NCBI GenBank assembly: GCA_964366335.1 | Contig: CAYITQ010000003.1 | Span: 1 to 39,736 of the forward strand | Direction of reading: 5' to 3' | Origin: an uncultured Gammaproteobacteria bacterium | GTDB taxonomy: Bacteria; Patescibacteriota; Microgenomatia; CAZETR01; Amesbacteraceae | DNA length: 39,736 nucleotides | In this document: piece by piece, positions 25,264-39,736 of the stretch | Layout of the letters: each line of letters begins with the position of its first letter | Position numbering within the stretch: position 1 is the first letter of the stretch | Made by a program: the position numbers and the translations under genes | Notes under the pieces: generated by a model | The model's database searches: none | What the model was told of the DNA's origin: nothing | The model's input: the letters and a program-made list of their open reading frames with translations, nothing else

Positions 25264-25896
25264 TTATGGGCACAGCTGGGCTTTGGTGTAACCAGCCTTC
25301 TCAGCTTCCTTGATACTGCAAAACCATTGATCACCTAAATAGAGTTGAACTGTCGTTCTATTATATTGCCCACAGCCAGGATAATGGTAAATCAAATCCT
25401 TGGTTCCTGACCTGCGGTTTCCTTTGATATTACATTTGGGATTGGTTGGATTGGTTTCTTGAGAACACTTCGTACTAAATATTCCAATTTTATTTTTACT
25501 AGACTCTTGGCTGGCTGCCAATAGTTCTGTAGCTGAATCCTTGGAAACATTGTGTGAATATGCCCAGCCACTTTTGAGCATTTCCAGATTTACAAACTTG
25601 TCATCGACATAGACCATGCTCACAAGTCTGAAATATGGGTCTTTGTAAATTACTTTCATTTGAACTTTTTTATTTAGGATCATATCTTCGAGAGTTTTTT
25701 TGGCTTCAGCCGCACCACACAAACCCAACTCAGGCGCGTCAACGCCAGCGATTCTGACTTTTTGCTTTTCGGCTGTCACAAATGTATCCCCGTCATATAC
25801 TTCCGCCACCGTATAGCTCGTCTTTTCCTGCACCGCCGCCTGCCAGCTAACCAGTGACAACAGTCCTATTATCCCAGCCACAAACTTCTTGTTCAC
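25264..25896 (-). CDS. Secreted thermonuclease (SNase) family protein, paralogue of 5056-5682
   Basis: VYDGDT, VRIAGVDAPE, CNIKGN...YHYPGC...WFC; same MNKKFVAG start. Confidence 0.9.
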   Translation of the reverse strand: MNKKFVAGIIGLLSLVSWQAAVQEKTSYTVAEVYDGDTFVTAEKQKVRIAGVDAPELGLCGAAEAKKTLEDMILNKKVQMKVIYKDPYFRLVSMVYVDDKFVNLEMLKSGWAYSHNVSKDSATELLAASQESSKNKIGIFSTKCSQETNPTNPKCNIKGNRRSGTKDLIYHYPGCGQYNRTTVQLYLGDQWFCSIKEAEKAGYTKAQLCP

Positions 25897-25920
25897 AATT
25901 AAATTGTACCACCAAACAAT

Positions 25921-25985
25921 CTATGACAATGAATGACCACCGTATGACTATGAATGACTATTGAATGCCTACTGTATGACCAATT
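25921..25985 (+). repeat. Degenerate ATGAC/TATGAC-ATGAATGAC tandem repeat at the left edge of the accessory block
   Basis: Five ATGAC units plus an ATGCC variant in ~65 bp. Confidence 0.6.
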
Positions 25986-26034
25986 CCTATTCCTGTAATA
26001 GTTAGAGAAAAAAGGAGTAAAATATATCTGCTAT

Positions 26035-26850
26035 ATGTACGATAAGCCATATTACGAAAAACCAAGATTCAAACTTTACCAAGCGAACTGCTTGGAATTG
26101 TTAGCCGAACTTCCAGAAAATTCTGTTGATATGGTTTTTGCCGATCCTCCTTATAATCTTTCAAATGGAGGTATTTCTGTTCATGCTGGACGGATGGTTA
26201 GCGTTAATAAGGGAGATTGGGACAAAAGTAAGGGTTTTAATGGTGATTATACCTTCCACTTCAAATGGATGGAGGCGTGTCGTAGAGTCTTAAGACCCCA
26301 TGGTACGCTTTGGGTTAGTGGTACTTATCATTCAATTTATCAATGTGGTCATGCCTTACAATCGCTTGGCTACCACATTTTAAATGATATCGCTTGGTTC
26401 AAACCGAACGCATCGCCAAATTTAAGTTGTCGTTATTTTACGGCAAGCCATGAAACTTTGATTTGGGCCCGCAAAGATAAAGAATCAAGACATGTTTTCA
26501 ATTATGACTTGATGAAAAACGGTAATTGGCCAGAAGATCAATTAAAGAAACCCGGTCTACAGATGCGTTCAGTTTGGGCAATGGGAACGCCGAAAACAGT
26601 TGAAAAGAAATTTGGAAAACATCCGACTCAAAAACCGGAAGATTTATTAAAAAGAATTGTTCTTGCAAGCACAAATAAAGGCGATTTAATTCTTGATCCG
26701 TTTACAGGTAGTTCAACAACTGGTATTGCCGCTTATCTTCTCGGACGGCGTTTTATTGGCATTGATACTGAACCAAAATATTTAGATGTATCAATAAAGC
26801 GATTTGAAGAATTAGACCGAAATATTAATTTGAAAGCGTCTAGAAAATAA
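26035..26850 (+). CDS. Site-specific DNA methyltransferase (N6/N4, beta class; DpnA-like)
   Basis: FADPPY, HPTQKP, LDPFTGSSTT in beta order. Confidence 0.93.
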   Translation: MYDKPYYEKPRFKLYQANCLELLAELPENSVDMVFADPPYNLSNGGISVHAGRMVSVNKGDWDKSKGFNGDYTFHFKWMEACRRVLRPHGTLWVSGTYHSIYQCGHALQSLGYHILNDIAWFKPNASPNLSCRYFTASHETLIWARKDKESRHVFNYDLMKNGNWPEDQLKKPGLQMRSVWAMGTPKTVEKKFGKHPTQKPEDLLKRIVLASTNKGDLILDPFTGSSTTGIAAYLLGRRFIGIDTEPKYLDVSIKRFEELDRNINLKASRK

Positions 26851-26854
26851 ACAT

Positions 26855-27388
26855 ATGAAGATAAGAGGAACGGGTGGAGGAAACACAATTACGGGGATAA
26901 ACTTTGAAAGAGGACGGGATATTTTGTTCATCCTCGATAAAACTGATGGCTATTCAATAAAAGGAAATCTTGTCTATTATCTTGAAAAGGAAGTTGCACA
27001 TAGTTATAAAAAACATGGACTCTATAAATTCCTGAACTCCAAAGGTATTGATTGGACAAAATATATCTCAAAGCAACTTTTGCCAGATGAGGCATTATAT
27101 GTAATAGTAAACAATACGCTTTTTATTATTGAAATGAAGTTCCAAGGAGTTTCTGGTTCCGTCGATGAAAAACTTCAGACATGCGATTTCAAGGTTAAGC
27201 AATATAAAAAATTGATGGCACCTCTGAATATAGAAGTTGAGTATATTTATATCCTCAATGACTGGTTCAAAAAACATCAATACAAAGACACGCTTGATTA
27301 TGTAATTGCGGTCGGTTGTCAATATTATTTCAATTATTTACCACTACATAAACTTGGTCTACCTGTTCCAAATCACAAGACTGAGTAA
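26855..27388 (+). CDS. PD-(D/E)XK nuclease, probable cognate restriction endonuclease
   Basis: LLPDEA...IIEMKFQ..SGSVDEKL; 4 nt downstream of the methyltransferase. Confidence 0.8.
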   Translation: MKIRGTGGGNTITGINFERGRDILFILDKTDGYSIKGNLVYYLEKEVAHSYKKHGLYKFLNSKGIDWTKYISKQLLPDEALYVIVNNTLFIIEMKFQGVSGSVDEKLQTCDFKVKQYKKLMAPLNIEVEYIYILNDWFKKHQYKDTLDYVIAVGCQYYFNYLPLHKLGLPVPNHKTE

Positions 27389-27489
27389 TGTTTATAGAAT
27401 TAATTAAATCAACTAATTAGTTAATAAACACTATGGCCTTACATTGAAGGAAATTGCAATTTAGAGCGATAAAGATAATAATAAGATAT

Positions 27490-28452
27490 ATGAAAATGAA
27501 CTTATCAAAATTAAATAATGTTGAATTAAGAGATGTTTGGGGACACGAAGCCATTGATTTTACGAATTGGCTTGCACAAAAGGAAAATCTTGATTTGTTA
27601 AGTGAGGAAATCGGCGTTGATATTAAACTTACTCAAACCGAAGCAAGTGTCGGAAAGTTTAATGTAGATATTCTTGCTGAAGAAGAAAACTCAGGCAGAA
27701 AAATAATAATTGAAAATCAGCTTGAAGATACAAACCATGATCATCTTGGTAAAATTATCACCTACGCATCCGGCTATGACGCGGAAATAATTATCTGGAT
27801 CGTCAGGGATTATAGAGAAGAACACCAAAAAGCGATTAACTGGCTAAATGAACACACAGATGAACATATTAGTTTCTTTTTGATAAGAATTGAGCTTTGG
27901 CAAATTGAAGGCTCAAACCCCGCTCCAAAATTCGAGATCGTTGTCGGTCCAAATGAATGGGCAAAAGCTATTAAGACAGATGTAGCAAGCGGAAAATTGA
28001 CAGATACCAAAGTTCAGCAATTGGATTTCTGGAAAAAATTCAAAGATTATGTTTCGACAAGTGATAAAGAAATTCGTTTACAAACACCCCGCCCACAACA
28101 TTGGTACGATGTGAGTATAGGGAATGGTGACGCGCACGTGGCTTTAACAATCAATTCCAGAGAAAATTTGCTCGGTTGTGAAATTTACATAAACAAAAAT
28201 AAGGGTTTATATAATTTTTTGTTTGAGCAAAAAGATGAAATAGAAAAAGAAATTGGAGAAAAGGCAAAGTGGGTGGATTCAGCAGTTTCTTCAAGTATCA
28301 AAATAAAAAAAGCTGTGTCTAACGTATTTGTCCAAAATGAAGCAGTAAATTATTTTACCTGGCTTTACGAAAAAACAATTTTGTTCCAAAAAGTATTCGG
28401 CAGATATTTTAATGAATTCAAAAAAATGGAAGAAAAACATAAGCTTCATTAG
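27490..28452 (+). CDS. DUF4268 domain protein with NucS-like nuclease N-terminus
   Basis: LRDVW.HEA.DFT.WL, VDILA...IIIENQL...HDHLGK..TYA, FW..F, PQHW. Confidence 0.85.
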   Translation: MKMNLSKLNNVELRDVWGHEAIDFTNWLAQKENLDLLSEEIGVDIKLTQTEASVGKFNVDILAEEENSGRKIIIENQLEDTNHDHLGKIITYASGYDAEIIIWIVRDYREEHQKAINWLNEHTDEHISFFLIRIELWQIEGSNPAPKFEIVVGPNEWAKAIKTDVASGKLTDTKVQQLDFWKKFKDYVSTSDKEIRLQTPRPQHWYDVSIGNGDAHVALTINSRENLLGCEIYINKNKGLYNFLFEQKDEIEKEIGEKAKWVDSAVSSSIKIKKAVSNVFVQNEAVNYFTWLYEKTILFQKVFGRYFNEFKKMEEKHKLH

Positions 28453-28454
28453 TT

Positions 28455-29231
28455 ATGAATAAATCAAAAGCATTTATAAGACAATATAAACATGAATTTA
28501 TTGCGTTTATCGTAAATACGATAGCAGCATACTTTTCTTTTTTATTAATAAATCCGAACATTGCCTTCGTTTTAACCACAGCGATTTTTACTTTATCTTT
28601 TTTTGTAATTATCTACTTTAGGACAAAAGATACAGACTTTTATTTTATGTCATTAGACAAGCCAGGGTGCGAAAAAGATTGGGTGGGCAGAGGTAGGTTT
28701 GCTTTTGTGCGAAACGAAAACTGTTTTGAGATAACAGATTCACATGCGGGATATATTTTCCCTAAAACAGCTATTTGGGACGATTACAAATTAGAATGTA
28801 ATTTTAAAATCGTAAACATGTCATTTTGTTGTATCATTCGAGCCGTGAATTTATCAAATTATGTAATGTATCAATTATTTTACGACAGAATAAAACCACA
28901 TTTAAGGATTAACGGAGAATGGATAATAATGGAAGAAAATGTTTTTGAAGATAAGCTAAAACCTGATAAATGGTACAAACTAATAATCATTTGCGAAAAA
29001 AGGAGCATCAGAATTAATATTAAATACGAAAATAAATCATTATTTGATAGACATTTTGTTATTCCTTCACAGATTGGGGTTGTCTATCGAGAGTTAAACT
29101 CAAAAGGAGAGGAAACAAAAAGAGAAACAAAATTAATGCAAAATATAGATTTTGATTTTGGGTCAATAGGAGTAAGAAATTATGGGGATGAACGGGCATT
29201 TGTTAAAAACATTTACTTAGAGAAACTATGA
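28455..29231 (+). CDS. Hypothetical protein, two N-terminal TM helices plus beta-rich domain
   Basis: 258-aa ORF, operonic spacing. Confidence 0.7.
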   Translation: MNKSKAFIRQYKHEFIAFIVNTIAAYFSFLLINPNIAFVLTTAIFTLSFFVIIYFRTKDTDFYFMSLDKPGCEKDWVGRGRFAFVRNENCFEITDSHAGYIFPKTAIWDDYKLECNFKIVNMSFCCIIRAVNLSNYVMYQLFYDRIKPHLRINGEWIIMEENVFEDKLKPDKWYKLIIICEKRSIRINIKYENKSLFDRHFVIPSQIGVVYRELNSKGEETKRETKLMQNIDFDFGSIGVRNYGDERAFVKNIYLEKL

Positions 29232-29653
29232 ATAATCAAGTGTTTTACACAGTGACAAGTGGAACTTTGGTATTTGTTATTGGGCAAATATTACAGAAGT
29301 TCTTTTTAGAACCAATTTATGAATACAAAAAAACAATTGGAGAAATTGATAACAAATTAAAATTTTATGCCAACATTCTGACTAACTCTGGATTCAATCA
29401 AAAGATTATACTTGAGATTACGAATACTATGAGAACTCTATCGTGTCAGATTGAATCCAATTATAAACAAATTCCTTTTACAGATTTTCTCTCACGGATT
29501 GGTTGTATCGAAGGGAAAAAGGAAATTGCAGAAGTGGCGCAAGGATTAATCTTCTTGTCTAATGCGGGTGGAAGAGGTGAAAGCAAAATTGAAAAATGTG
29601 ATGAGAGAATAGATCAAATTAGAAAAATATTTAAAATTGAATCCCTTAACTAA
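29228..29653 (+). CDS. Hypothetical protein with N-terminal TM helix
   Basis: 141-aa ORF, ATGA-coupled. Confidence 0.7.
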   Translation: MNNQVFYTVTSGTLVFVIGQILQKFFLEPIYEYKKTIGEIDNKLKFYANILTNSGFNQKIILEITNTMRTLSCQIESNYKQIPFTDFLSRIGCIEGKKEIAEVAQGLIFLSNAGGRGESKIEKCDERIDQIRKIFKIESLN

Positions 29654-29727
29654 TGGCTAAACATACAGAATTATGCTTAGAATAAGTTCTGACATATTCG
29701 ATAATTGATGAAAGGTGAAATAAGAAT

Positions 29728-30303
29728 ATGAATCAACATTTAGAGCCGATTTTTAAAATACTCATTCCCAATATTGAAAAGTCTGGACTCAGTTATTGGG
29801 TTTATGGTGGTGTAGCAATTGCAGGAGTAAAAGGTAATTTTTATAGAGTTAATGCAGATATTGATATATTTGTTCTAGAGAAAGATTATAAAAAAGTTAT
29901 TAATAATATTACCGCGACTTCAGATAGAAATTTATGGATTTTCAAACCAGCAAAATTATTAAATAATAGACCTAAGAGTGAGCTTATTATAGAAAATAAA
30001 GAAAGATTATCTATAGTACCGATTTACGAAAGGGGTAATGAAATAGAATTTATCTTTGAAAATGGACCAAAAATATTCGCAAGGAAATTACTTAATCCCG
30101 TCATTCGTTATATAGGAGAATACAAATTTATCACTCCAAGTGAAGATCTTTTAAAAGAATTGTTACGGTGTTATTTAGAATCTTTTTTTAAATCTGAAAG
30201 AAGAAAAAATAATAAAATCTTGTGGGAGAAAAGGAAATTAGATGTTGAGCAATTATTTGGTGAACAAGAATCTAAAAGACTTTTTATAGAACCCTTAATT
30301 TAA
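29728..30303 (+). CDS. Nucleotidyltransferase family protein (pol-beta fold; resembles antibiotic nucleotidyltransferases)
   Basis: YWVYGGVA...R...DIDIFV motif. Confidence 0.75.
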   Translation: MNQHLEPIFKILIPNIEKSGLSYWVYGGVAIAGVKGNFYRVNADIDIFVLEKDYKKVINNITATSDRNLWIFKPAKLLNNRPKSELIIENKERLSIVPIYERGNEIEFIFENGPKIFARKLLNPVIRYIGEYKFITPSEDLLKELLRCYLESFFKSERRKNNKILWEKRKLDVEQLFGEQESKRLFIEPLI

Positions 30304-30468
30304 AACCCGATAAGAGAAATTATTGGTCCGCGAATCGGCAGCGAGAGGGGAATTTTTTTAGCAAATAATCGGTGATCCGTCGCAGCGAACGCTAAAAAAA
30401 CTTGAAATGACTTCAATGAAAGTTTTAGTGAGTGTCACGTACACAAAAGGGTGTAAAATAATTGTTGT

Positions 30469-30603
30469 ATGAAGGTAATGTTCTTGGACGAATCGGGTGA
30501 TCATAGTAAAGAAAATAAAGCTTTTTATTATATTGAAAAAAAGTTTCATAGAAGTCCAAAAGGTATTGATTATCTTAATTATGGTTTGAAGATCTTTCCA
30601 TAA
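30469..30603 (+). pseudogene. DUF3800-like gene with large in-frame internal deletion (44 aa)
   Basis: Translates to MKVMFLDESGDHS-KENKAF...YGLKIFP*, the typical N- and C-termini of the family joined. Confidence 0.7.
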
Positions 30604-30640
30604 AAAAGGGGACCCAGGAAAGCCCTAGTCCCCCTCTTTT
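30604..30640. ncRNA. Hairpin directly after the DUF3800 remnant (candidate family-associated RNA or terminator)
   Basis: AGGGGAC-CCAGGAAAGCCCTA-GTCCCCT with flanking A and T runs. Confidence 0.4.
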
Positions 30641-30750
30641 ATCTAATAAACAGTATACATGGGATGTCAAGCAAACACAATAATGACACTAAATATATTT
30701 ATTCCCTTTCCCAAAATTCCAAATCTATGGTGAAATAGTAAAATAAACTT

Positions 30751-32034
30751 ATGATAAGCATATTTGAAAAGCAGTTTGATAGATTGGCTAAGACGATAAA
30801 GGAGAAAGTGGGGATTTGGCTAAAAAGGCTCAGGGCATATTTTAAACGTCTACTTTTTCCACTTTATTTCTTCCCCATAAAACTAATTACTTATACTACC
30901 TATTATCTTATTAAATTTATTTTTAAATTAATATTTGCCATAATTAGCCTGATTTTTGATATTATTATTTTTCCCTTTAGAAGCCTCAAAAATTTATTAA
31001 AATCTATTGTTGCTCTCGTTATCATTGCATATTTATTGGCATCTCTGGTAGTCATTGCTGACTACCTCATCAATCAATATGGCCGGTTTAACAAAGTCTT
31101 TTGTTCTGCCGGGACCAGAAATATTCTCCTAAAATCGGTGGTCAGAGTGGTTGGTGGTTATTCTGAGGGGTCAGGATTTTTTATCACCCCCAATCAGGTG
31201 ATTACCAATTTCCATGTCATAGCCGATGAACCCAGTCCCAAGATAATATTTCCTGATGGGAGTTTTGTTACTCCTATCAAAATTTTGGGTGACAAAAACG
31301 TAGATCTGACTATTTTGTTTACAGAAAAAAACTATGACAACCTGGTGCTACCCCTACCCGATTTAGTCGCTTTCAAAGAAAATGATCCGGTAATAGCTGC
31401 GGGCTATCCATTGGGCACGGGTCTTACAGGTAAGGCGACCATCTTGAAGGGGCGGTTTATCGATTTTAGGAATTCCAAAAGAATGCCTATTGGCTATATC
31501 CAAACCGATATTAACTTGGTACCCGGTATGAGTGGTGGTCCATTAGTCGATATCTGCGGAGAAGTGGTCGGTATAAATACCATGGGGCTCTCGGGATTAT
31601 CAATGTATATCAATGCCGGTTGGGCCAAAAAAGTAATTCCCGATTTTACCGACCAGAATATTACGAAAATCAAAGTCGATGCCTCGCTTTCCCCCGAGGA
31701 AGCAGTCAAGGCATTTTATACTTATCTTAAGGCCAGGAGGATGGAAGACGGATTTAACCTGCTCAGTAGCGAATATCTCAAGAAAACTAATTTTGAAGAG
31801 TGGACAAATAGATTTACAAATATTCTCGATGTAGATATCATCTTGACTGAAAAATATAATAATACCAAAGATACTGTCTTTGTAAAATTTGGGACCAAAA
31901 ACTGGGTAGAGGGCGAGGTGGATGTCCATTATTATGAAGGGACCTGGCAAACTATAAAAGAGGATGGGGTTTACAAAATGCTCAAGAGTAAAATACTGGA
32001 AGTTGACCAGCCAGGTTGGGAATGGTTTTATTGA
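30751..32034 (+). CDS. Membrane-anchored trypsin-like serine protease with extra C-terminal domain
   Basis: GSGF, TNFHV, D, PGMSGGPL catalytic triad motifs. Confidence 0.88.
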   Translation: MISIFEKQFDRLAKTIKEKVGIWLKRLRAYFKRLLFPLYFFPIKLITYTTYYLIKFIFKLIFAIISLIFDIIIFPFRSLKNLLKSIVALVIIAYLLASLVVIADYLINQYGRFNKVFCSAGTRNILLKSVVRVVGGYSEGSGFFITPNQVITNFHVIADEPSPKIIFPDGSFVTPIKILGDKNVDLTILFTEKNYDNLVLPLPDLVAFKENDPVIAAGYPLGTGLTGKATILKGRFIDFRNSKRMPIGYIQTDINLVPGMSGGPLVDICGEVVGINTMGLSGLSMYINAGWAKKVIPDFTDQNITKIKVDASLSPEEAVKAFYTYLKARRMEDGFNLLSSEYLKKTNFEEWTNRFTNILDVDIILTEKYNNTKDTVFVKFGTKNWVEGEVDVHYYEGTWQTIKEDGVYKMLKSKILEVDQPGWEWFY

Positions 32035-32076
32035 CAAATATATTTATTCGGCGGGTAATAGATATATAATCAAAAT

Positions 32077-32399
32077 ATGGAGAGTGAATGGATCAATGTA
32101 AATGAATGGGTAAGTTCAAAAATTTCACAGGTGGTATTTACTGTCAGGAAACTGTTAACCCGTGATATTAAAGCCAAGTATGAAACTCTCAGATATTTGA
32201 TACTTGAGAAAATCGATCCTAGCCCACCTGGTCTGATGATGTGAATTATTTATACGAACCATTAAGAACGCCGGAATTTTTTGAAACCTATTCAAAACAA
32301 TCTCAGAAGATATTAAATCCTCTGGTCAGGGTAATTGGTCTCCAGTTCTATGCTGCCAGGCAAAGATATCAGGAATTGTTGGATAAACAGAATCATTAA
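32077..32399 (+). pseudogene. Possible frameshifted hypothetical gene (~107 aa)
   Basis: 55-codon ORF from ATG 32077 (TATAAT 6 nt upstream) continues in the -1 frame from ~32223 to TAA 32399. Confidence 0.35.
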
Positions 32400-32402
32400 T
32401 AC

Positions 32403-32431
32403 TTGACATCGGGTATTATTCGGAATATATT
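32403..32431 (+). promoter_or_regulatory. Sigma70-type promoter for a leaderless Bro-N transcript
   Basis: TTGACA-17-TATATT, 6 nt before ATG 32438. Confidence 0.65.
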
Positions 32432-32437
32432 ATTGTT

Positions 32438-33265
32438 ATGGAAGAAACTAGAATTGCTATCTTCAAGGGTAAAAATATCCGCAAGATCTTATTCAACAAT
32501 GAATGGTGGTTTTCAGTAGTCGATGTTATCGAAGCACTGACGGATAGCTCACAGCCAAGTAAATATTGGACTGCAATGAAAGCTCGAGTAAATAATGATG
32601 ATGGGGTTCAGTTATCTACAATTTGTAGACAACTGAAATTAAAGGCTTCTGATGAAAAGAAATATGAAACTGATTGTGCCAATACCGAAGGGATTTTTCG
32701 TATTATTCAATCTATTCCATCCCCAAAAGCAGAACCATTTAAAAGATGGCTGGCAAAAGTTGGTTATGAACGGGTGCAAGAAATTGAAGACCCTGAGTTG
32801 GCAACAAAGCGAACTAGATTATTATATAAACTTAAGGGTTATTCTGAAGACTGGATAGAGAAAAGACTGCGGGGGATTGCCATCCGTGAAGAACTGACAG
32901 AGGAATGGCAAAAGAGGGGAGTAAGACTGCAAAGAGAGTATGAGATATTGACAGCCGAGATTTCCAAGGCTGCTTTTGGAGTTACTCCTAGTCAGTACAA
33001 GAAACTGAAAGGTCTAAAAAGACAAAATCTGCGTGATCACATGGACGATTTTGAATTAATTTTTACCATGCTTGGCGAAAGGGTAACTACAGAAATTTCC
33101 AAGCAAGAAAAACCAGATACTTTCTCCAAAAATGCAAGTGTCGCCTATCGAGGTGGAAAAGTCGCTGGAAACGCCAGGAGGGAAACAGAAAAAGAAATTG
33201 GTAGAAGTGTTGTTTCCAAAAATAATTATCTCAAAAAACCCAAGGGTCAAAAACGATTACTGTGA
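32438..33265 (+). CDS. Bro-N domain protein
   Basis: EWWFSVVDVI, RIIQSIPSPKAEPFKRWLA, NLRDHM. Confidence 0.9.
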   Translation: MEETRIAIFKGKNIRKILFNNEWWFSVVDVIEALTDSSQPSKYWTAMKARVNNDDGVQLSTICRQLKLKASDEKKYETDCANTEGIFRIIQSIPSPKAEPFKRWLAKVGYERVQEIEDPELATKRTRLLYKLKGYSEDWIEKRLRGIAIREELTEEWQKRGVRLQREYEILTAEISKAAFGVTPSQYKKLKGLKRQNLRDHMDDFELIFTMLGERVTTEISKQEKPDTFSKNASVAYRGGKVAGNARRETEKEIGRSVVSKNNYLKKPKGQKRLL

Positions 33266-33357
33266 GCTAGTTTTTGAAAAAGTTCGCACTCTTTTCAGGA
33301 ATTTGCCCTGAATCTCCGGGCTCATCCCTTGCTTTGCTCGGGATTCGCCTTTTCCGC
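33263..33357 (+). repeat. Left att arm; inverted repeat of 38022-38117
   Basis: 95 nt; 4 substitutions outside a ~22-nt diverged centre. Confidence 0.92.
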
Positions 33358-33484
33358 CGGATTTTTTGCGCGCGCGTTGTCTCGATTGACATCGGGACCC
33401 TTATTAACTAACCATTACATTCTACTACATTCCAAACAGCCCACCCACCCTAAACGAGAAGTCGCCAAATCAAAGGATTTCAAA

Positions 33485-34276
33485 TCAAGACAGAGCTTTT
33501 GAAATTTCGTCAAGACATTTTTCCCTATTCTCTCGTTTAAGTCTTATCTTTTTCGAGAGTATCTTGTACTTGTAATCAATTAATAGCAAGTTTATTAAAG
33601 CCTCTATTGCCTGGCCGTATGCCTTAATAGTCCCTACCATTGATTTCGCTTTCGGCTCATCTATCGGGATCTCAACATTCCGATTTAGGCGAGATAATCT
33701 CTTTTTTCGTCCCGTTCCTTCACAGTTAACCTTAAAAATTCTAATCCAAATTTTGTTTTCATTTGTGTCAGTGTATACCATCATTCCATGTTTAATTTTA
33801 TTTTGAACAAGTTCCAATATTCTTGACTTAACTATTCTTTGTTCAATCGCATCTCTAACAGAACGCCAGACCGTATCCACACCTTCTTTCATTAAAATCT
33901 CATTTGTGCTGTGGATTTTTGCAATTTGACTTATTGGAGGGAAATCAAGCTTCCTCAGAAAACCTCCTAGTGATCTAACGCGTCTAAAACTGTCGATAAC
34001 TTTTTTCGAATCACTATGGTTAGTCCGGATAGATAAAAGTCTCTCCCACTCGTCACGATATTTTTTATCTCCATCGTTTCGTTGCATTATCGCTTGCAAC
34101 CACATGGATAAGTCATCCGTTTGTGCTGCCAACTCCTCAACAATTCTGAGCATTAAAGCCCTTTGCTCATTTAAGTCACGCGAATTTTCAAGTTGGTTGC
34201 ATAAAACATTGGCAGTTTTGTATCTTATGTAGCACGCAAACTCTTTGTAGTTTTTAAAAAATTCAAACCTATTCAT
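33485..34276 (-). CDS. Hypothetical protein (helical; QNKIKHG weakly resembles a HEPN motif)
   Basis: 263-aa ORF, ATGA-coupled to ABC-F. Confidence 0.65.
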   Translation of the reverse strand: MNRFEFFKNYKEFACYIRYKTANVLCNQLENSRDLNEQRALMLRIVEELAAQTDDLSMWLQAIMQRNDGDKKYRDEWERLLSIRTNHSDSKKVIDSFRRVRSLGGFLRKLDFPPISQIAKIHSTNEILMKEGVDTVWRSVRDAIEQRIVKSRILELVQNKIKHGMMVYTDTNENKIWIRIFKVNCEGTGRKKRLSRLNRNVEIPIDEPKAKSMVGTIKAYGQAIEALINLLLIDYKYKILSKKIRLKRENREKCLDEISKALS

Positions 34277-35655
34277 AGTTTAGTCAATTTGCCATTTTCT
34301 AGGTTAACGGAATCTGTAGTACCAATTCTTTCCAAGAAATACCTATCGTGCGAAATTACTAAAAGTGTTCCTGAATAATTTACCAATGCTTCCTCAATAG
34401 CTTCTCGGGAAGAAATATCCAAGTGGTTTGTGGGCTCATCCAGAATGATAAAATTGGCTCCACTGGTCATGATTTTAGCTAGAAGTAGTTTTGCCTTTTC
34501 ACCGCTACTTAACAATTTGACAGGTTGGTTAATTTTTTCCGGTGGCAACAAAAACCTTCTCAATAGTTTGTAACTTTCGGTTTTATCAATATTCTCACTA
34601 GCTAATTCATCTAAAACGATCTTGTCAGAATCTAATTCCTGATGCTCTTGGCTCAAATAACCAGTTTGAACTTCATTTCCAATATTAATTTCTCCACTAT
34701 CAGGTACGAGTTGACCTAAAATGAGTTTGACCAAAGTTGTCTTACCACTACCATTGTCGCCAATTAAAGCCAGTCGTTGACCTTTCTGAATAACCAGAGA
34801 AATATTCTTTAAAATATTTTTATAATTTACTGACTTAATCTGAACCACCGTTTGACCACTTTCCTTTTTTGACTTAAATAATGCTTTTAACTCCCAATTG
34901 GGTTGTGGCTTGTCAATCTTGTCAATGCTTTCTATTCTGTTTTCCAAAGCCTGAATTTGTTTTCCAAATTTCCGACCTACTCGATTGGCAAAGAAAGAAG
35001 CGGCGAATTTATCTTTATCTCTAGTTGGTGGTGCATCAGTGCCACCTTTTTGAACAGTATTTCTTTTTTCCAACAGATCTGCTTGCAACTTCTGTATCTG
35101 TTTTTGTTGCTTTTCGTAATTTCGCAGATGGGACTCTAATTCGATTTGTTTTTGCTGTTTATAAAGTGAATAGTTACCTCCATAAACTTTTATTACTCCA
35201 TTTTCTAATTCAAGAATTTTATCCACAACTTTGTCCAAGAAATAACGGTCATGTGAGACTATTAGGATTGGTCCTGAAAAAGCCATCACTTCTTTTTCCA
35301 GCCAGGACATTCCCTGCCAATCCAAATGATTAGTTGGTTCATCCAGAAGTAATACGTCTGGTTTAGAAATTAATATCTCTCTAAATCGTTTCTTCAGCTT
35401 TTGTCCACTAGACAAAGGATCGTTGTCATCCGCTACTTGAGATAAGTATCCAATCTGGACAGTTTTGGGATTGAAAGTTACATATCCTGAATCCTGCGTT
35501 TCCTCGCCCATTAAGATTTTAAACAAAGTTGATTTACCAGAACCATTTTTGCCCAATAAGGCTACTTTCTCACCGCTGTTTATGGCAAATGAAACATCTT
35601 TAAGAACGTCTTGCCCGCCAAATGATTTTGATAGTTTAGATACTTGAATGTGCAT
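34273..35655 (-). CDS. ABC-F family ATPase (candidate ribosomal protection protein)
   Basis: Two NBDs (GKNGSGKST, GDNGSGKTT, LDEPTNHLD x2, SHDRYFL x2), long interdomain linker, no TM. Confidence 0.92.
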   Translation of the reverse strand: MHIQVSKLSKSFGGQDVLKDVSFAINSGEKVALLGKNGSGKSTLFKILMGEETQDSGYVTFNPKTVQIGYLSQVADDNDPLSSGQKLKKRFREILISKPDVLLLDEPTNHLDWQGMSWLEKEVMAFSGPILIVSHDRYFLDKVVDKILELENGVIKVYGGNYSLYKQQKQIELESHLRNYEKQQKQIQKLQADLLEKRNTVQKGGTDAPPTRDKDKFAASFFANRVGRKFGKQIQALENRIESIDKIDKPQPNWELKALFKSKKESGQTVVQIKSVNYKNILKNISLVIQKGQRLALIGDNGSGKTTLVKLILGQLVPDSGEINIGNEVQTGYLSQEHQELDSDKIVLDELASENIDKTESYKLLRRFLLPPEKINQPVKLLSSGEKAKLLLAKIMTSGANFIILDEPTNHLDISSREAIEEALVNYSGTLLVISHDRYFLERIGTTDSVNLENGKLTKL

Positions 35656-36835
35656 ATTTGTTTACTCGCAAAATAACGGAAAAACCAAAAATCAGTATTC
35701 CCATGACCAGAAAGGTGATCCTAAATGAATATTGAGCCATGATTCCAAAGACAACTGACATAACTCCAATATACAACTTATCCAGCATGGCTATCATAGA
35801 TAAAGTGGTAGCTCGAGATTTTTTATCCAATTGTTTATTTATTAGGGCCGAAATAGTCGGTCCTCTGGTAAAGGTGGAGGCGTAAGTAATTATAAATATC
35901 ATAATCACTGCAATTTGATTATTAAAAGTGGCGAACGCCAAATAACCAAGGCTTGGAAAAATACACATTAAATAAAACGCTTTTTTCTCACCTAACCATT
36001 TTTCAAGTTTTGGAAGCTGACTCATTATTAAAAATGCCAACAAACTAGCGAGGGAGAGTGACCAACCAATCCACAACGGGGTAACAGAAAACTTTACGAA
36101 ATATGGTTGATACAAACCTAAGAGTACTCCCGTGAATGAGTCAGTGAGAATTAAAATTGCGACTATCCACTGTAGTTGTTTGTTGGATAATATATAGGTG
36201 AGTCCATTTGAAAATATTTCTCTAGGTGAAAGTTCAAGGTGTTTATAATCAAGTTTAGATTCTTTAAAGAACAAGGACAATAAAAAAGCCATCGTTACAC
36301 TAATGGCAGTAAACAGAATAGCCACCTTAAATTTAGTTAAAGTTAGTGAAGAAACAATTATTCCCCCAATCAGGGGTGCTATCAGTGAACAAATCAAATA
36401 TGCGCTGGCGTTTAGGCGGGTCGCTTTCTTCATTAAAGCGTGGCTGTCTCCTTTGGGTAGGGAGTCGTATAACAAAGCCTCTCCAGCCCCAGAAGCAAAA
36501 GCAAAGCCAATACCAGCCAGAGCTGAGATTAAAGCAAATCCCCAGTAGTTATTTGTAAACAAATACAAATATTCGCCTGCGGTTTGAATAAACAAAGCGA
36601 TTACTACTGACCATTTGCGACCAATTTTATCAGCCAATATCCCCGTCGGAACTTCAGCTAATAAAGAGGAGATTATTAGAATTGATCCCAACGAGCCAAT
36701 TTGACCCAATGAAAGTCCTCGGGTTTGCAAATATAGCGTTCCGATATGATTGTAAAAATACAAATTGGCAAAGAAAGTCACCGCCACCATGAGAGTGGTA
36801 TTGGACATTCTTGATAATTTATTAAACATACACAT
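35636..36835 (-). CDS. MFS transporter
   Basis: EVPTGILADKIGRK motif A, SGAGEALLYDS, ~12 TM helices; GGAGGT SD 5 nt upstream. Confidence 0.92.
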   Translation of the reverse strand: MCMFNKLSRMSNTTLMVAVTFFANLYFYNHIGTLYLQTRGLSLGQIGSLGSILIISSLLAEVPTGILADKIGRKWSVVIALFIQTAGEYLYLFTNNYWGFALISALAGIGFAFASGAGEALLYDSLPKGDSHALMKKATRLNASAYLICSLIAPLIGGIIVSSLTLTKFKVAILFTAISVTMAFLLSLFFKESKLDYKHLELSPREIFSNGLTYILSNKQLQWIVAILILTDSFTGVLLGLYQPYFVKFSVTPLWIGWSLSLASLLAFLIMSQLPKLEKWLGEKKAFYLMCIFPSLGYLAFATFNNQIAVIMIFIITYASTFTRGPTISALINKQLDKKSRATTLSMIAMLDKLYIGVMSVVFGIMAQYSFRITFLVMGILIFGFSVILRVNKYAHSSI

Positions 36836-36848
36836 ATATTACCTCCAC

Positions 36849-36875
36849 AAAAAAACCAGCTCCTTTGGCTGGTCT
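36849..36875 (-). terminator. Intrinsic terminator (attenuator) in the MFS/ABC-F leader
   Basis: Minus strand ACCAGC-CAAAGGA-GCTGGT followed by a U run, just before the SD. Confidence 0.8.
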
Positions 36876-36925
36876 GGATTTTAATGATTAACTATTATTT
36901 AATAATTCACGCAAAGACCAGCCTT

Positions 36926-36961
36926 TTAGGCTTGGGGTTCTTTGGTAGAATTGTTAACCAT
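36926..36961 (-). CDS. Leader peptide uORF MVNNSTKEPQA
   Basis: ATG 7 nt after TATAAT; overlaps the anti-antiterminator hairpin. Confidence 0.65.
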   Translation of the reverse strand: MVNNSTKEPQA

Positions 36962-36968
36962 TACCACT

Positions 36969-36997
36969 ATTATACTACAAACCTATAATAAATTCAA
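36969..36997 (-). promoter_or_regulatory. Sigma70-type promoter of the uORF-MFS-ABC-F operon
   Basis: TTGAAT-17-TATAAT on the minus strand. Confidence 0.75.
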
Positions 36998-37039
36998 TCG
37001 CAAGATTGAAAACTTCGTGGCTAGTAGTATACTGTACTC

Positions 37040-37900
37040 ATGCTTCCAAAAGGATTCAAAATAAGAAAAATGGTTCGTTCAGAATTGAACGTTGCTGCTG
37101 GTTGGGCGGCTAGTGAGGGTTGGAACCCCGGGCTTCATGATACAGATGTCTTTTGGTTAACTGATCCAGGGGGGTTCATGGCACTAGAAAAAGATGGAGA
37201 AATGATAGGGAGTGTATCTGGAGTTTCCTACAATGGAAAATTTGGTTTTGGAGGTTTCTTTATTATTAAACCAGAATACCGGAAAAAAAGACTTGGTACT
37301 GAATTGGCTAATTATTTTCTAGAAACTCTGGCCACCAGACTTAAAAAGGTCGCTGCCATAGGTATAGATGGGGTGTTTAATATGCAACCGACTTATTCTA
37401 AGTGGGGATTCAAATTTTCGCATCGAAATTTAAGAATGGAAAGCAAAGCAGTCAAGAAATCTTTTTCCAAAAATGTTACAAAAATAGCCTCTGAAGATTT
37501 TGATTCAATCAATAAACTCGATAGTAAATGTTTTGGATTTAATCGAACCAATTTTCTGAAAGGCTGGCTTTTCATGCCTGATAGTCTGGGATATAAATAT
37601 ATGCAAAATGGGGAAATAAAAGGTTTTGGAGTAATAAGAAAATGCGTAAAAGGTTATAAGATTGGTCCACTATTTGCTTCCAACTATGAAGTGGCTCATG
37701 AATTGTTCAAGGCTTTATCATGTTACGCAGTAGACGATTTAATTTATCTGGATGTGCCAGAAATTAATCAAGAAGCAATGAAGCTCGCTAAGAATTACAA
37801 CATGATGGAAATGTTTGGCTGTGCCCGTATGTATCTTGGCAAAGCTCCAAAAATACCATACGACCGAGTATTTGGAGTGACGACATTTGAACTTGGGTGA
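37040..37900 (+). CDS. GNAT family N-acetyltransferase (two-domain, YitH-like)
   Basis: EGWNPG, FFIIKPEYR...LG, Y.K.GF, KIGPLFA; TTGAAA-16-TATACT 6 nt before ATG. Confidence 0.9.
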   Translation: MLPKGFKIRKMVRSELNVAAGWAASEGWNPGLHDTDVFWLTDPGGFMALEKDGEMIGSVSGVSYNGKFGFGGFFIIKPEYRKKRLGTELANYFLETLATRLKKVAAIGIDGVFNMQPTYSKWGFKFSHRNLRMESKAVKKSFSKNVTKIASEDFDSINKLDSKCFGFNRTNFLKGWLFMPDSLGYKYMQNGEIKGFGVIRKCVKGYKIGPLFASNYEVAHELFKALSCYAVDDLIYLDVPEINQEAMKLAKNYNMMEMFGCARMYLGKAPKIPYDRVFGVTTFELG

Positions 37901-37967
37901 TGAAATTGAAAATCTCTGAATAAAAATCCCATTGACTTCGGGGAAGGTTAGGAGAAAATATAATCGC

Positions 37968-38219
37968 ACCTTAAAATTTTTGCGTTTGCTTTGAGAAGAA
38001 AAATGTCCGAGCCGATGTTTAGCGGAAAAGGCGAATCCCGAGTAAAGCGAGGGATGAGCCCGGAGAATTCACAGAGAATTGCGAAAACGGGTGCGGACTT
38101 TTTCAAAAACTAGCTCAGAAAGGGAGTCCCCGCGAGTGGCCAGCTCGGCAAAGCCCATTTTGTATCTGACGCCCAGTTGCCGGAGTCAAATCTCAAAGCA
38201 AACGCAAAAATTTTAAGGT
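37968..38219 (+). ncRNA. Candidate structured leader/ncRNA: perfect 29-bp terminal stem closing a loop antisense to the element's attP region
   Basis: 37968-37996 is the exact reverse complement of 38191-38219; loop segments complement 39590-39605, 33263-33357 and 39611-39690. Transcription is inferred, not shown. Confidence 0.6.
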
Positions 38220-38228
38220 CATTTGCCA

Positions 38229-39716
38229 ATGAAGTACATAGCCTACTGCCGGAAAAGTACAGACGAGAAAGACCGTCAGATTTTGAGTATCGAGTCCCAG
38301 ATCCAAGAGATCAAGGACTTTGCTCAAAAACAGAATCTAGAAATAATCGAATTTGCTACTGAAGCCAAGACTGCCAAAGTCCCGGGTCGTTTGGTTTTTG
38401 AGCAAGTCCTAAGAAAGATTGAAAAAGGAGAGGCTCAAGGAATATTTTCCTGGCATCCCGATAGACTTGCCAGAAATTCTGTTGACGGAGGCAGGATTAT
38501 TTACCTACTCGATACTGGCAAATTACTGGATCTCAAATTCCCATCTTTCTGGTTTGAAAATTCACCCCAAGGAAAATTTGTTCTCAATATGGCCTTTGGT
38601 CAATCAAAGTATTACGTTGACAATCTGTCTGAAAATGTTAAAAGGGGACTGAGGCAACAACTGAGAAATGGTGTCTGGCCGGCCAAATCTCCCTACGGCT
38701 ACATTTACAATAAACCAGCCAAGAAACATGAGATTGATCCGATTAAATCTAAGTTCATCAAAAAGGCTTTTCAGCAGTATGCCAGTGGGGAGTGGGGACA
38801 GACACAAATAGCAGACGTACTTTTTGAACATGGTTACTCTAGAAAAAATGGCAAGCCACTTTCATTAAATGAAGTAGTCCATTTCTTAACCAACAAGTTT
38901 TACATTGGTCTGTTCAAATATAACAGTGAATGGCATGAAGGCAGACATGAGCAATTTATTAGTAAAAGCCTTTTTGATGAAGTCCAAAGAAAATTAAGCA
39001 CAAACAAAAAAGTATTTAAAGGACACAAATTTTCCTTTTTGGGACTGGCTAAGTGTGGTGAATGTGGAGCCAGTATCACGGCCGAACACAAAACAAAGAT
39101 CTACAAACGTACCCGGGGTAAAGTTGAATATATTTACTACCGTTGTACCAAGAAGCTCAAACCCTGTACTCAAAAGTATATCCAAGAGCCAGTTCTTGAA
39201 CAGCAACTCAGAAAAATTATTTCTGACGTTGCCTTACCCCAATCGTGGGCAGATCAATGGAATCAATGGTTAGACAGAGATGAGATCACCGAAAAACAAC
39301 AAACTAGTCAAAGAATAACCGAGACTGAAATCGAAACCAAAAGACTGGATGAGAAACTAAACACATTACTAGATGGATATTTAGATGGAACTATTGATGC
39401 CAATATTTACAAGACCAAAAAGAATGAATTATTTGAAAACAAAGTGAAGTTACAAGACCAAATAGTCAAACTTCAGACCCAAGGCTCGAGTTGGCTCGGA
39501 CCAATGCGAGAATTTATAAATATAGCGGTAGATGGGGACAAAACCGCGCGCGCAAAAAATAATGCCGACGAACTTTGTTCCATCGGCAAAAACATCGGCT
39601 CGGACTACTTTTTGACTAACCGGCAACTGGGCGTCAGGTACAAAATGGGCTTTGCCGAGCTGGCCGTTCGCGGGAACTCCTTTTCTGAGCGAGTGAAGGG
39701 AATCGAACCCTCGTGA
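38229..39716 (+). CDS. Large serine recombinase (resolvase, recombinase, zinc ribbon and coiled-coil domains)
   Basis: YCRKS catalytic Ser, DRLARN, PYGY, CGECG...YYRC; last codons run antisense through tRNA-Gly. Confidence 0.95.
   Translation: MKYIAYCRKSTDEKDRQILSIESQIQEIKDFAQKQNLEIIEFATEAKTAKVPGRLVFEQVLRKIEKGEAQGIFSWHPDRLARNSVDGGRIIYLLDTGKLLDLKFPSFWFENSPQGKFVLNMAFGQSKYYVDNLSENVKRGLRQQLRNGVWPAKSPYGYIYNKPAKKHEIDPIKSKFIKKAFQQYASGEWGQTQIADVLFEHGYSRKNGKPLSLNEVVHFLTNKFYIGLFKYNSEWHEGRHEQFISKSLFDEVQRKLSTNKKVFKGHKFSFLGLAKCGECGASITAEHKTKIYKRTRGKVEYIYYRCTKKLKPCTQKYIQEPVLEQQLRKIISDVALPQSWADQWNQWLDRDEITEKQQTSQRITETEIETKRLDEKLNTLLDGYLDGTIDANIYKTKKNELFENKVKLQDQIVKLQTQGSSWLGPMREFINIAVDGDKTARAKNNADELCSIGKNIGSDYFLTNRQLGVRYKMGFAELAVRGNSFSERVKGIEPS
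39620..39690 (+). repeat. Right att arm inside the recombinase CDS; inverted repeat of 38113-38183
   Basis: 66/71 identity to the reverse complement. Confidence 0.95.
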
Positions 39717-39736
39717 CAACTTTGGAAAAGTTGCGT
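39688..39736 (-). tRNA. tRNA-Gly(TCC), 3' part, truncated by window end
   Basis: CAACT-TTTCCAA-AGTTG anticodon arm; GAGGG-TTCGATT-CCCTT T-arm; CACTCGC-T acceptor strand. Confidence 0.9.

Follow-up and report, generated by a model that had tools for sequence, protein, structure and literature searches.

A large serine recombinase gene from a patescibacterial genome that appears to contain its own attP and to exchange its C-terminal tail upon integration at a tRNA gene

Introduction

Large serine integrases of phages (SPbeta SprA/YokA, LI/A118, phiC31, and Bxb1) share a domain set and fold, a short crossover core, and an outer motif that is shifted by 4 or 5 bp between attP and attB. Which way a serine integrase recombines its sites is ordinarily determined by a second protein, the recombination directionality factor (RDF). 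Here, we analyzed the whole 39,736-nt contig CAYITQ010000003.1 (the window) of a 0.76-Mb genome of groundwater origin (761 kb scanned), and we describe a mobile element of ∼6.4 kb that carries four cargo genes and is inserted at tRNA-Gly(TCC). Its large serine recombinase has the features listed above. Unlike the phage enzymes, it contains attP within its own gene, and past the end of the solved fold, it continues into a C-terminal linker and a helix; a conserved outer motif is present on one arm only instead of a symmetric attP, no RDF gene is conserved, a second, inverted attP is carried, and the targets of the family comprise 25 anticodon types. Sequence comparison makes it nearly certain that attP lies inside the recombinase gene and that integration swaps the tail of the protein, as an initial annotation of this DNA had proposed.

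An att site within the integrase gene and a tRNA target are likewise found in the archaeal suicidal tyrosine integrases (SSV1, pTN3, pT26-2). The available part of a review argues that the intact suicidal integrase gene plays the part of an RDF and states that such integrases are exclusively archaeal (PMC8371274), a statement that the present family contradicts. In contrast to the SSV1 type, the enzyme studied here is a serine recombinase in bacteria, integration costs it no more than 14 residues, and the element has a spare site in cis; instead of an Int(N)/Int(C) split, the catalytic and DNA-binding domains stay together, as the fold ends before the junction. In the streptococcal IME_Spy2096_SNF2, the gene of a serine integrase likewise contains the recombination site, but this element is a single case, targets snf2 rather than a tRNA gene, and neither a conserved tail nor a second attP is described in the part of the source available (PMC5357655). 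In the immunity system of mycobacteriophage BPs, integration likewise changes the C terminus of a protein whose gene contains attP; as far as the available text goes, that protein is a repressor whose free form has a tail serving as a degradation tag, and it is the short form that is active (PMC4557955). Here, unlike in BPs, the protein is a recombinase, and the tail of the free form is conserved and predicted to be structured. Finally, Prochlorococcus tycheposons and cryptic tRNA elements are small cargo elements at tRNA genes, a minority of which have a large serine recombinase; the accessible portion of the source describes tycheposons with direct repeats of partial tRNAs, excisionases, and often replication genes (10.1101/2020.12.28.424599). 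The present elements differ by their 4-nt core and by having no common open reading frame (ORF) family besides the recombinase (tycheposon profiles were not run). Available parts of two further sources are also cited (PMC12884075; 10.1101/2025.05.02.651858). We found no description of this recombinase family in the literature, of which subscription papers were largely outside reach.

The attachment site and its boundary

The recombinase gene (38229 to 39716, forward strand) encodes Resolvase, Recombinase, and zinc ribbon domains that score above the Pfam cutoffs, as well as a coiled coil, and the protein model matches the SPbeta and LI integrase structures. Named homologs come mostly from Microgenomates/Patescibacteria records, which suggests a host from this group. 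In the integrated state, the gene reads into the antisense strand of tRNA-Gly, in agreement with the initial annotation, and yields a 495-amino-acid protein that ends in RVKGIEPS (TGA stop at 39714 to 39716). Of this tRNA-Gly(TCC), the 3′ 50 nt are present (39687 to 39736, reverse strand), cut by the contig end; ARAGORN made no call, whereas the Rfam score was 30.3 bits against a cutoff of 29, and a complete tRNA-Gly gene of near-identical sequence is present in the nearest named relative (L001). Joining the TGAGC at 39686 to 39690 to the TGAGC at 33263 to 33267 gave the in-frame continuation that had been predicted, an open frame of 501 amino acids ending in LVFEKVRTLFRNLP, with a TGA stop at 33309 to 33311. 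The joined arms are the P arm within the recombinase gene (39620 to 39690, forward strand), which terminates in the attR core (39686 to 39690), and the P′ arm at the left end of the element (33263 to 33357, forward strand), which begins with the attL core (33263 to 33267, forward strand) and encodes the 14-amino-acid tail (33268 to 33311).

TGAGC occurs 60 times on both strands of the window, which is the chance level, so the reconstructed join needed independent support. This support came from an inverted internal copy of the junction, identical to the gene arm at 66/71 positions and to the left arm at 83/95; from relatives with other flanking DNA (attL and attR of G003, and L001), which break at the same bases, so that the element boundaries are kept in relatives; and from a weight matrix built from the attP arms of the family, the window's own leader copy among them, which exceeded 30 bits only at 33263 (forward) and 38115 (reverse) in the 761-kb genome and gave 0 matches above the threshold in 795 kb of shuffled window. 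Loose ends lie before 33263 in two sequencing runs. The coordinates of the 5-nt core thus stood, but the core common to relatives is only the 4 nt GAGC, tRNA positions 71 to 74. The dyad symmetry that had been noted at the junction exists (local alignment, P ∼ 0.005) but is off center, gapped, and not conserved in the family; a test for symmetry about the core gave 8/25 (P = 0.52). The sequence G003 C23, considered as an insertion in the P arm, proved to consist of a P allele of greater length and, adjoining it, a fragment resembling tRNA-Gly.

A T-loop motif lies 12 nt beyond the core in the tRNA arm (59/59 and 12/12), and its mimic in the P′ arm of the element lies at offset 16 (39/39), as in the window, or 17 (10/10). 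The P′ motif is thus 4 or 5 bp further out in attP than in attB, and the available part of PMC11722253 gives a 4- or 5-bp shift of the outer motif between attP and attB for serine integrases. The left (P) arm contains a weak inner motif and no conserved outer motif, the best count at offset 16 being 5/55, and the host DNA beyond the tRNA is arbitrary. From these arms, we infer that the enzyme mainly pairs a P′-bearing site with a tRNA-bearing site. As attP would then resemble attL, and attB would resemble attR, DNA alone would give little directionality; attP × attB, attL × attR, and spare attP × attR would look alike, so direction must be set otherwise. No ORF family (≥35 amino acids) occurred in more than 14 of the 73 delimited elements, across which the recombinase is the only common gene found. 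There is thus no conserved RDF candidate, although RDFs are diverse and one could be host encoded.

The conserved C-terminal tail

The initial annotation had named conservation of a VRTxF tail in homologs as a point to be checked. Among 46 distinct nine-codon attP tails, the motif has R in 46, T in 44, and F in 41, with no stop codon in any; these codon counts leave out L042 (frameshift), L047 (broken frame), and L064 (tRNA in the leader). The invariant Arg is encoded by CGA (37), AGA (5), CGC (2), or CGT (2), with five synonymous changes on a quick tree. In the same 46 tails, pN/pS was 0.52 in the tail frame versus 1.04 and 1.46 in the other two. The attP-type tail has a median length of 14 residues (interquartile range, 13 to 14), whereas the integrated type has a median of 20 (0 to 93) (n = 77). 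The reading frame is tied to the motif offset, 16 or 17, in 72 and 12, respectively, of 88 loci with an intact frame. These patterns make it very probable that the tail is selected as a protein. Since the integrated tail spans 0 to 93 amino acids and is unconstrained, integration amounts to the loss of one conserved tail; the C-terminal swap of the initial annotation was borne out, but not the idea of two designed isoforms.

Natural proteins that consist of the gene plus a tail were found in 3 of the best 120 homologs (1 by pattern, 2 by eye) and in loci L136 and L164. In addition, a pattern search of 115 representatives gave 13 matches, and visual inspection selected seven of these as tail-bearing fragments.

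Several arrangements around the gene end were noted. In L136 (2794 to 3174), a recombinase with an intact attP tail precedes another P arm and tRNA-Arg; here, a 246-bp unit that has the 17-nt accessory repeat at its borders is duplicated, and such a duplication could be another way to regain the tail in place. P0001 (residues 478 to 487) has a prejunction linker that falls 11 residues short of the length seen in most relatives; the linker sequence is hypervariable, and the tail is conserved. P0012, P0014, P0015, and P0086 (718 to 865 amino acids) have a gene end that runs into the body of a second recombinase and would be tandem fusions or assembly chimeras.

Predicted structure of the tail

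We modeled the C-terminal domain of the L136 protein with its natural tail by AlphaFold (mean predicted local distance difference test [pLDDT] of 87); a first fold from a 12-row alignment had a pLDDT of <50 over residues 437 to 501 and was not used. The model contains a tail helix at residues 233 to 253 (pLDDT ∼90). Solved integrases stop aligning at model residues 214 to 222, indicating that the integrated protein keeps the whole canonical fold and that the tail is an addition; the SSV1 parallel drawn in the initial annotation therefore holds for the att site in the integrase gene but not for the fate of the protein. None of the aligned solved relatives carries the C-terminal linker and helix extension, and when the C-terminal alignment was used as a profile against solved structures, the matches were only chance coiled coils.

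When the last 32 residues were docked as a separate chain, the score was 0.68 versus 0.02 for the best control, a mark reached by 116/157 solved complexes and by 2/215 mismatches. The contacts agreed at ≥93%, and the partner had a pLDDT of 84. In the docked model, the conserved residues F243, I246, R247, and F250 contact residues 86 to 89 and 167 to 171, segments that flank the coiled coil at 99 to 161. In SPbeta, according to the available part of PMC11722253, the inter-hinge segments that the RDF restrains lie to either side of the coiled coil. Residue ranges, rather than a superposition, suggest that the site of the tail corresponds to this RDF-restrained region, and modeling favors the view that the tail docks on the hinge region that excision factors restrain.

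An inverted spare attP in the leader

The leader of the recombinase gene contains, at 38022 to 38183 on the reverse strand, a reverse-complement copy (∼165 bp) of the whole reconstructed junction (P, 38113 to 38183; core, 38113 to 38117; P′, 38022 to 38117). This putative spare attP has an open reading frame of its own through a tail that bears the same motif, and it lies between 29-nt perfect inverted repeats, IR1 (37968 to 37996, forward strand) and IR2 (38191 to 38219, forward strand), the latter 10 nt upstream of the recombinase ATG. A promoter-like site (37932 to 37959, forward strand) precedes IR1; it is a consensus match only, at a chance-level count. Two short segments also match the gene. 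The 16-nt extension at 33361 to 33376 (forward strand) is the reverse complement of gene positions 39545 to 39560, and an equivalent match of at least 10 nt is present in 57/65 elements versus 0/65 in a control stretch. The segment at 38005 to 38020 (reverse strand) is a 16-nt copy of 39590 to 39605, with an equivalent match of at least 10 nt in 53/65 elements.

We examined 162 loci (80 genome loci, 80 metagenome loci, L186, and the window; some duplicates), 22 of which were too short to score. The leader copy was antisense in 126 of the 140 scorable loci; in the others, the copy was in sense (4 loci), the leader held a tRNA (2 loci), or no copy was present (8 loci). In the first 80 genome loci, the inverted gene arm was present in the leader in 54 of 59 scorable cases, and both arms were present in 23 of the 32 with at least 9 kb upstream. 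An "attP tail" class proposed for L145 was false, the match lying beyond the tRNA. Leader copies have median identities of 95.8% (n = 106) and 98.6% (n = 74) to the arms of their own element, compared with 32% between elements. The mismatches between leader and arms showed neither an adenine bias like that of diversity-generating retroelements nor a G-U bias, and an Rfam search of the leader and left end gave only the tRNA and a subthreshold Trp_leader match. The 13-nt core of IR1 and IR2 was found as a pair in 101/109 distinct leaders, with IR2 at 11 to 79 nt from the ATG. In L133, upstream of 2228, the promoter region is directly followed by the ATG, the whole repeat-bounded cassette being apparently deleted.

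Ninety loci end in a tRNA antisense, covering 25 anticodons and 12 amino acids, with 25 target changes on a quick tree of 72 proteins. A related recombinase was found in 24 of the 41 genomes searched, own genome included. Three more distant recombinases (44 to 46% identity) also carry the leader copy, and L200 is without it. The window is itself a mosaic. Its gene arm and the L098 leader arm are identical, and relative to the gene end of G003, the leader arm of the window has 1 difference, compared with 4 for the window's own gene arm.

Isomers and junctions

At the core of L051 and L064, the leader arm adjoins a tRNA-Glu in the sense orientation. Both ends of L064 bear tRNAs, and comparison with L054, from the same host locus, shows L064 to be inverted. 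L164 carries the same element as L157 in what would be a fully flipped arrangement. L001, the nearest named relative, is together with L093, L094, and L110 (one lineage) a recombinase-only module, and junctions of promoter, IR1, P arm, and core without a recombinase were seen in L002, L022, L122, and G003 (4 by eye from 11 candidates). Sequence comparison of these isomers and junctions shows apparent exchanges at the core and also at the short repeat. Neither a circle joint nor an empty-site joint was found in four runs (X1 to X4) from two samples, a search that is uninformative at a contig depth of 6 to 12×, as assembled contigs drop rare forms. Moreover, the leader already holds a near-identical junction in the chromosome, which confounds the read or PCR test for the circle junction that the initial annotation had suggested.

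A possible switch and its alternatives

On the sequence evidence, the element is real and would combine control by an att site within a serine integrase gene, a tail swap, selection on the tail, and an inverted spare attP. These parts could work together as follows. The recombinase gene carries attP 14 codons before its end, and insertion at tRNA-Gly replaces the conserved C-terminal helix with tRNA-antisense residues. By prediction, this helix holds the coiled-coil control arm at its base, and the enzyme likely requires it to be fully active; once inserted, the element would thus be locked in place. If the inverted spare attP then recombined with the junction on the tRNA side, the gene would likely be turned around and its tail regained, and the spare site joined to a tRNA with an inverted module in two relatives may reflect the normal reactivation route. 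After inversion, the entire gene would also lie downstream of the tRNA gene and be separated from the IR1 stem partner, and the arrangement would be a built-in on/off switch. The chances for and against removal of an activating tail by integration and its restoration by inversion are, in our estimate, evenly balanced, and the case is just as finely poised for the tailed form as the active form with spare-attP inversion as the reactivation route. A broader proposal seems rather doubtful: a self-resetting switch in one gene, with a tethered directionality helix lost by integration and regained by inversion, whose repeats would split recombinase-only from cargo-only modules and shuffle cargo among the tRNA loci of Patescibacteria.

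If the switch is real, a 14-residue tethered helix would act on the same hinge and be present or absent according to the state of the DNA, which could give single-gene switchable integrases. The family appears to recognize the universal tRNA T-loop, and the presence of a related recombinase in more than half of the genomes searched suggests that much of the gene flow in Patescibacteria may take this route; the element of the window carries a resistance-like ABC-F/MFS pair.

Several observations weigh against the proposed switch. The docked piece includes 18 residues that precede the junction and are common to both isoforms, and halves of one chain tend to pass split-chain docking. L051 and L064 share a locus and may represent one event; L164, which we down-weighted, crosses a perfect repeat of ∼93 nt and may be a misassembly, as could other tails in the databases. 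The failure to detect a circle or empty site, the eight scorable loci without a leader copy, and the ∼105-bp arms, far longer than an integrase needs and accounted for by the switch only through homogenization, point the same way. For the tail itself, the bootstrap interval of pN/pS is 0.27 to 0.98, the link between frame and offset is a single clade, formed by the 12 loci at the second offset, and Lys is always AAA and Glu always GAA, showing that a DNA constraint acts too. So few as three of the best 120 homologs have an attP-type tail, and the exact predicted 501-amino-acid isoform was not among the homologs: the closest tail-bearing protein, P0002 (501 amino acids, 91% identical), has the tail of a distant subfamily. 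This foreign tail fits tandem integration by another element. The N-terminal half of P0002 matches L098, which ends before the junction.

The long arms would also fit a leader copy that acts as RNA, the 5′ leader pairing with the 3′ end of its own mRNA; half of the pairing would be available in the integrated form and all of it in the circle, so that the state would be sensed and translation or decay set. The position of the copy between a promoter-like site and the ATG, its folding (z = −5.0), an excess of G-U over A-C in the IR flanks (185 versus 63, in related sequences that are not independent), and the two extra complementary segments, which covary with each gene (57/65 and 53/65), agree with this explanation. 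We nevertheless consider it unlikely, as G-U is not favored among the mismatches of the long arms (88 versus 98; 42 versus 57), IR2 lies at variable distances (11 to 79 nt) from the ATG and so the start is not always covered, and the leader core and the IR are both sites of DNA junctions. Folded single-stranded DNA is the form through which CTX phage and integron attC sites act. By analogy, the spare copy could be a splint that pairs P′ on the left and P on the right into a fold-back duplex attP; a single-stranded element would explain the inverted orientation, the near-perfect arms of ∼105 nt, the nested short repeats, and the lack of replication, transfer, or RDF genes. This appears improbable to us, since no single-stranded form was observed, solved relatives of this serine recombinase act on duplex sites in the available accounts, and protein-level selection on the tail is left unexplained.

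The remaining alternatives concern the tail. It could be conserved only through its overlap with a DNA motif, the isoforms being equivalent and the leader copy an autoregulatory site or a by-product. The T-loop-mimic motif does fall on the Arg-Thr codons, some of the third codon positions do not vary, the canonical fold is complete in the integrated protein, and the pN/pS interval nears 1; yet synonymous Arg changes alter the DNA motif, stops are absent, tail length is fixed, and spacing is linked to frame, which together with the docking result leaves this idea as improbable as the single-stranded one. It is still less probable that the tail acts in the opposite direction or on stability, as a tethered mimic of an excision factor that favors excision or as a degradation tag as in BPs. 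The predicted docking site is the RDF-restrained region, C-terminal integrase-RDF fusions work according to the partial sources at hand, and control by a tag with attP in the gene is established in the available part of PMC4557955. However, an incoming circle makes the tailed form and must still integrate, the last tail residues are free to vary, and the model predicts a buried position for those that are conserved.

Other features of the window

To the left of the element, a Bro-N gene (32438 to 33265, forward strand) forms the left flank (B arm) and lies outside it; Bro-N is absent as the left neighbor in G003 and L001 and is thus not conserved beside the element. The stretch from 25264 to 33265 also contains a DNA-methyltransferase-like ORF, a nuclease-like ORF, DUF4268, and a trypsin-like protein. 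Its GC content is 29 to 33% over 27001 to 31000, and no second P′ arm scored within it; it is likely older island material at the same tRNA.

The cargo comprises a 263-amino-acid ORF without a Pfam or NCBIfam match (33485 to 34276, reverse strand), a ribosomal-protection-like ABC-F protein (34273 to 35655, reverse strand; 437 bits against a cutoff of 380), an MFS transporter (35636 to 36835, reverse strand) with an attenuator-like inverted repeat upstream of its gene (36867 to 36923), and a GNAT acetyltransferase (37040 to 37900, forward strand). The MFS/ABC-F pair (34273 to 36923) is also cargo in G003, at 88% identity, and behind the attenuator-like repeat would form a mobile, possibly inducible resistance-like operon of an environmental, Patescibacteria-like host. 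No relative was found in viral contigs.

The promoter-like word TTGAC(A/T)TCGGG occurs at 32404 to 32414, 33384 to 33394, and 37932 to 37942, that is, before Bro-N, just inside attL, and before the leader. Two runs have contigs that align at 33398 and then at 37956, with intervening sequence. A C-rich motif near attL (33420 to 33450), possibly a small RNA or an origin, recurs in 13/73 elements and in G003 runs into a hairpin-rich region. The commonest cargo family is a small membrane-like ORF of ∼90 to 130 amino acids, present in 12 to 14 of the 73 elements (among them L006, L008, L014, L031, L035, L037, L117, L118, L120, L131, and L160).

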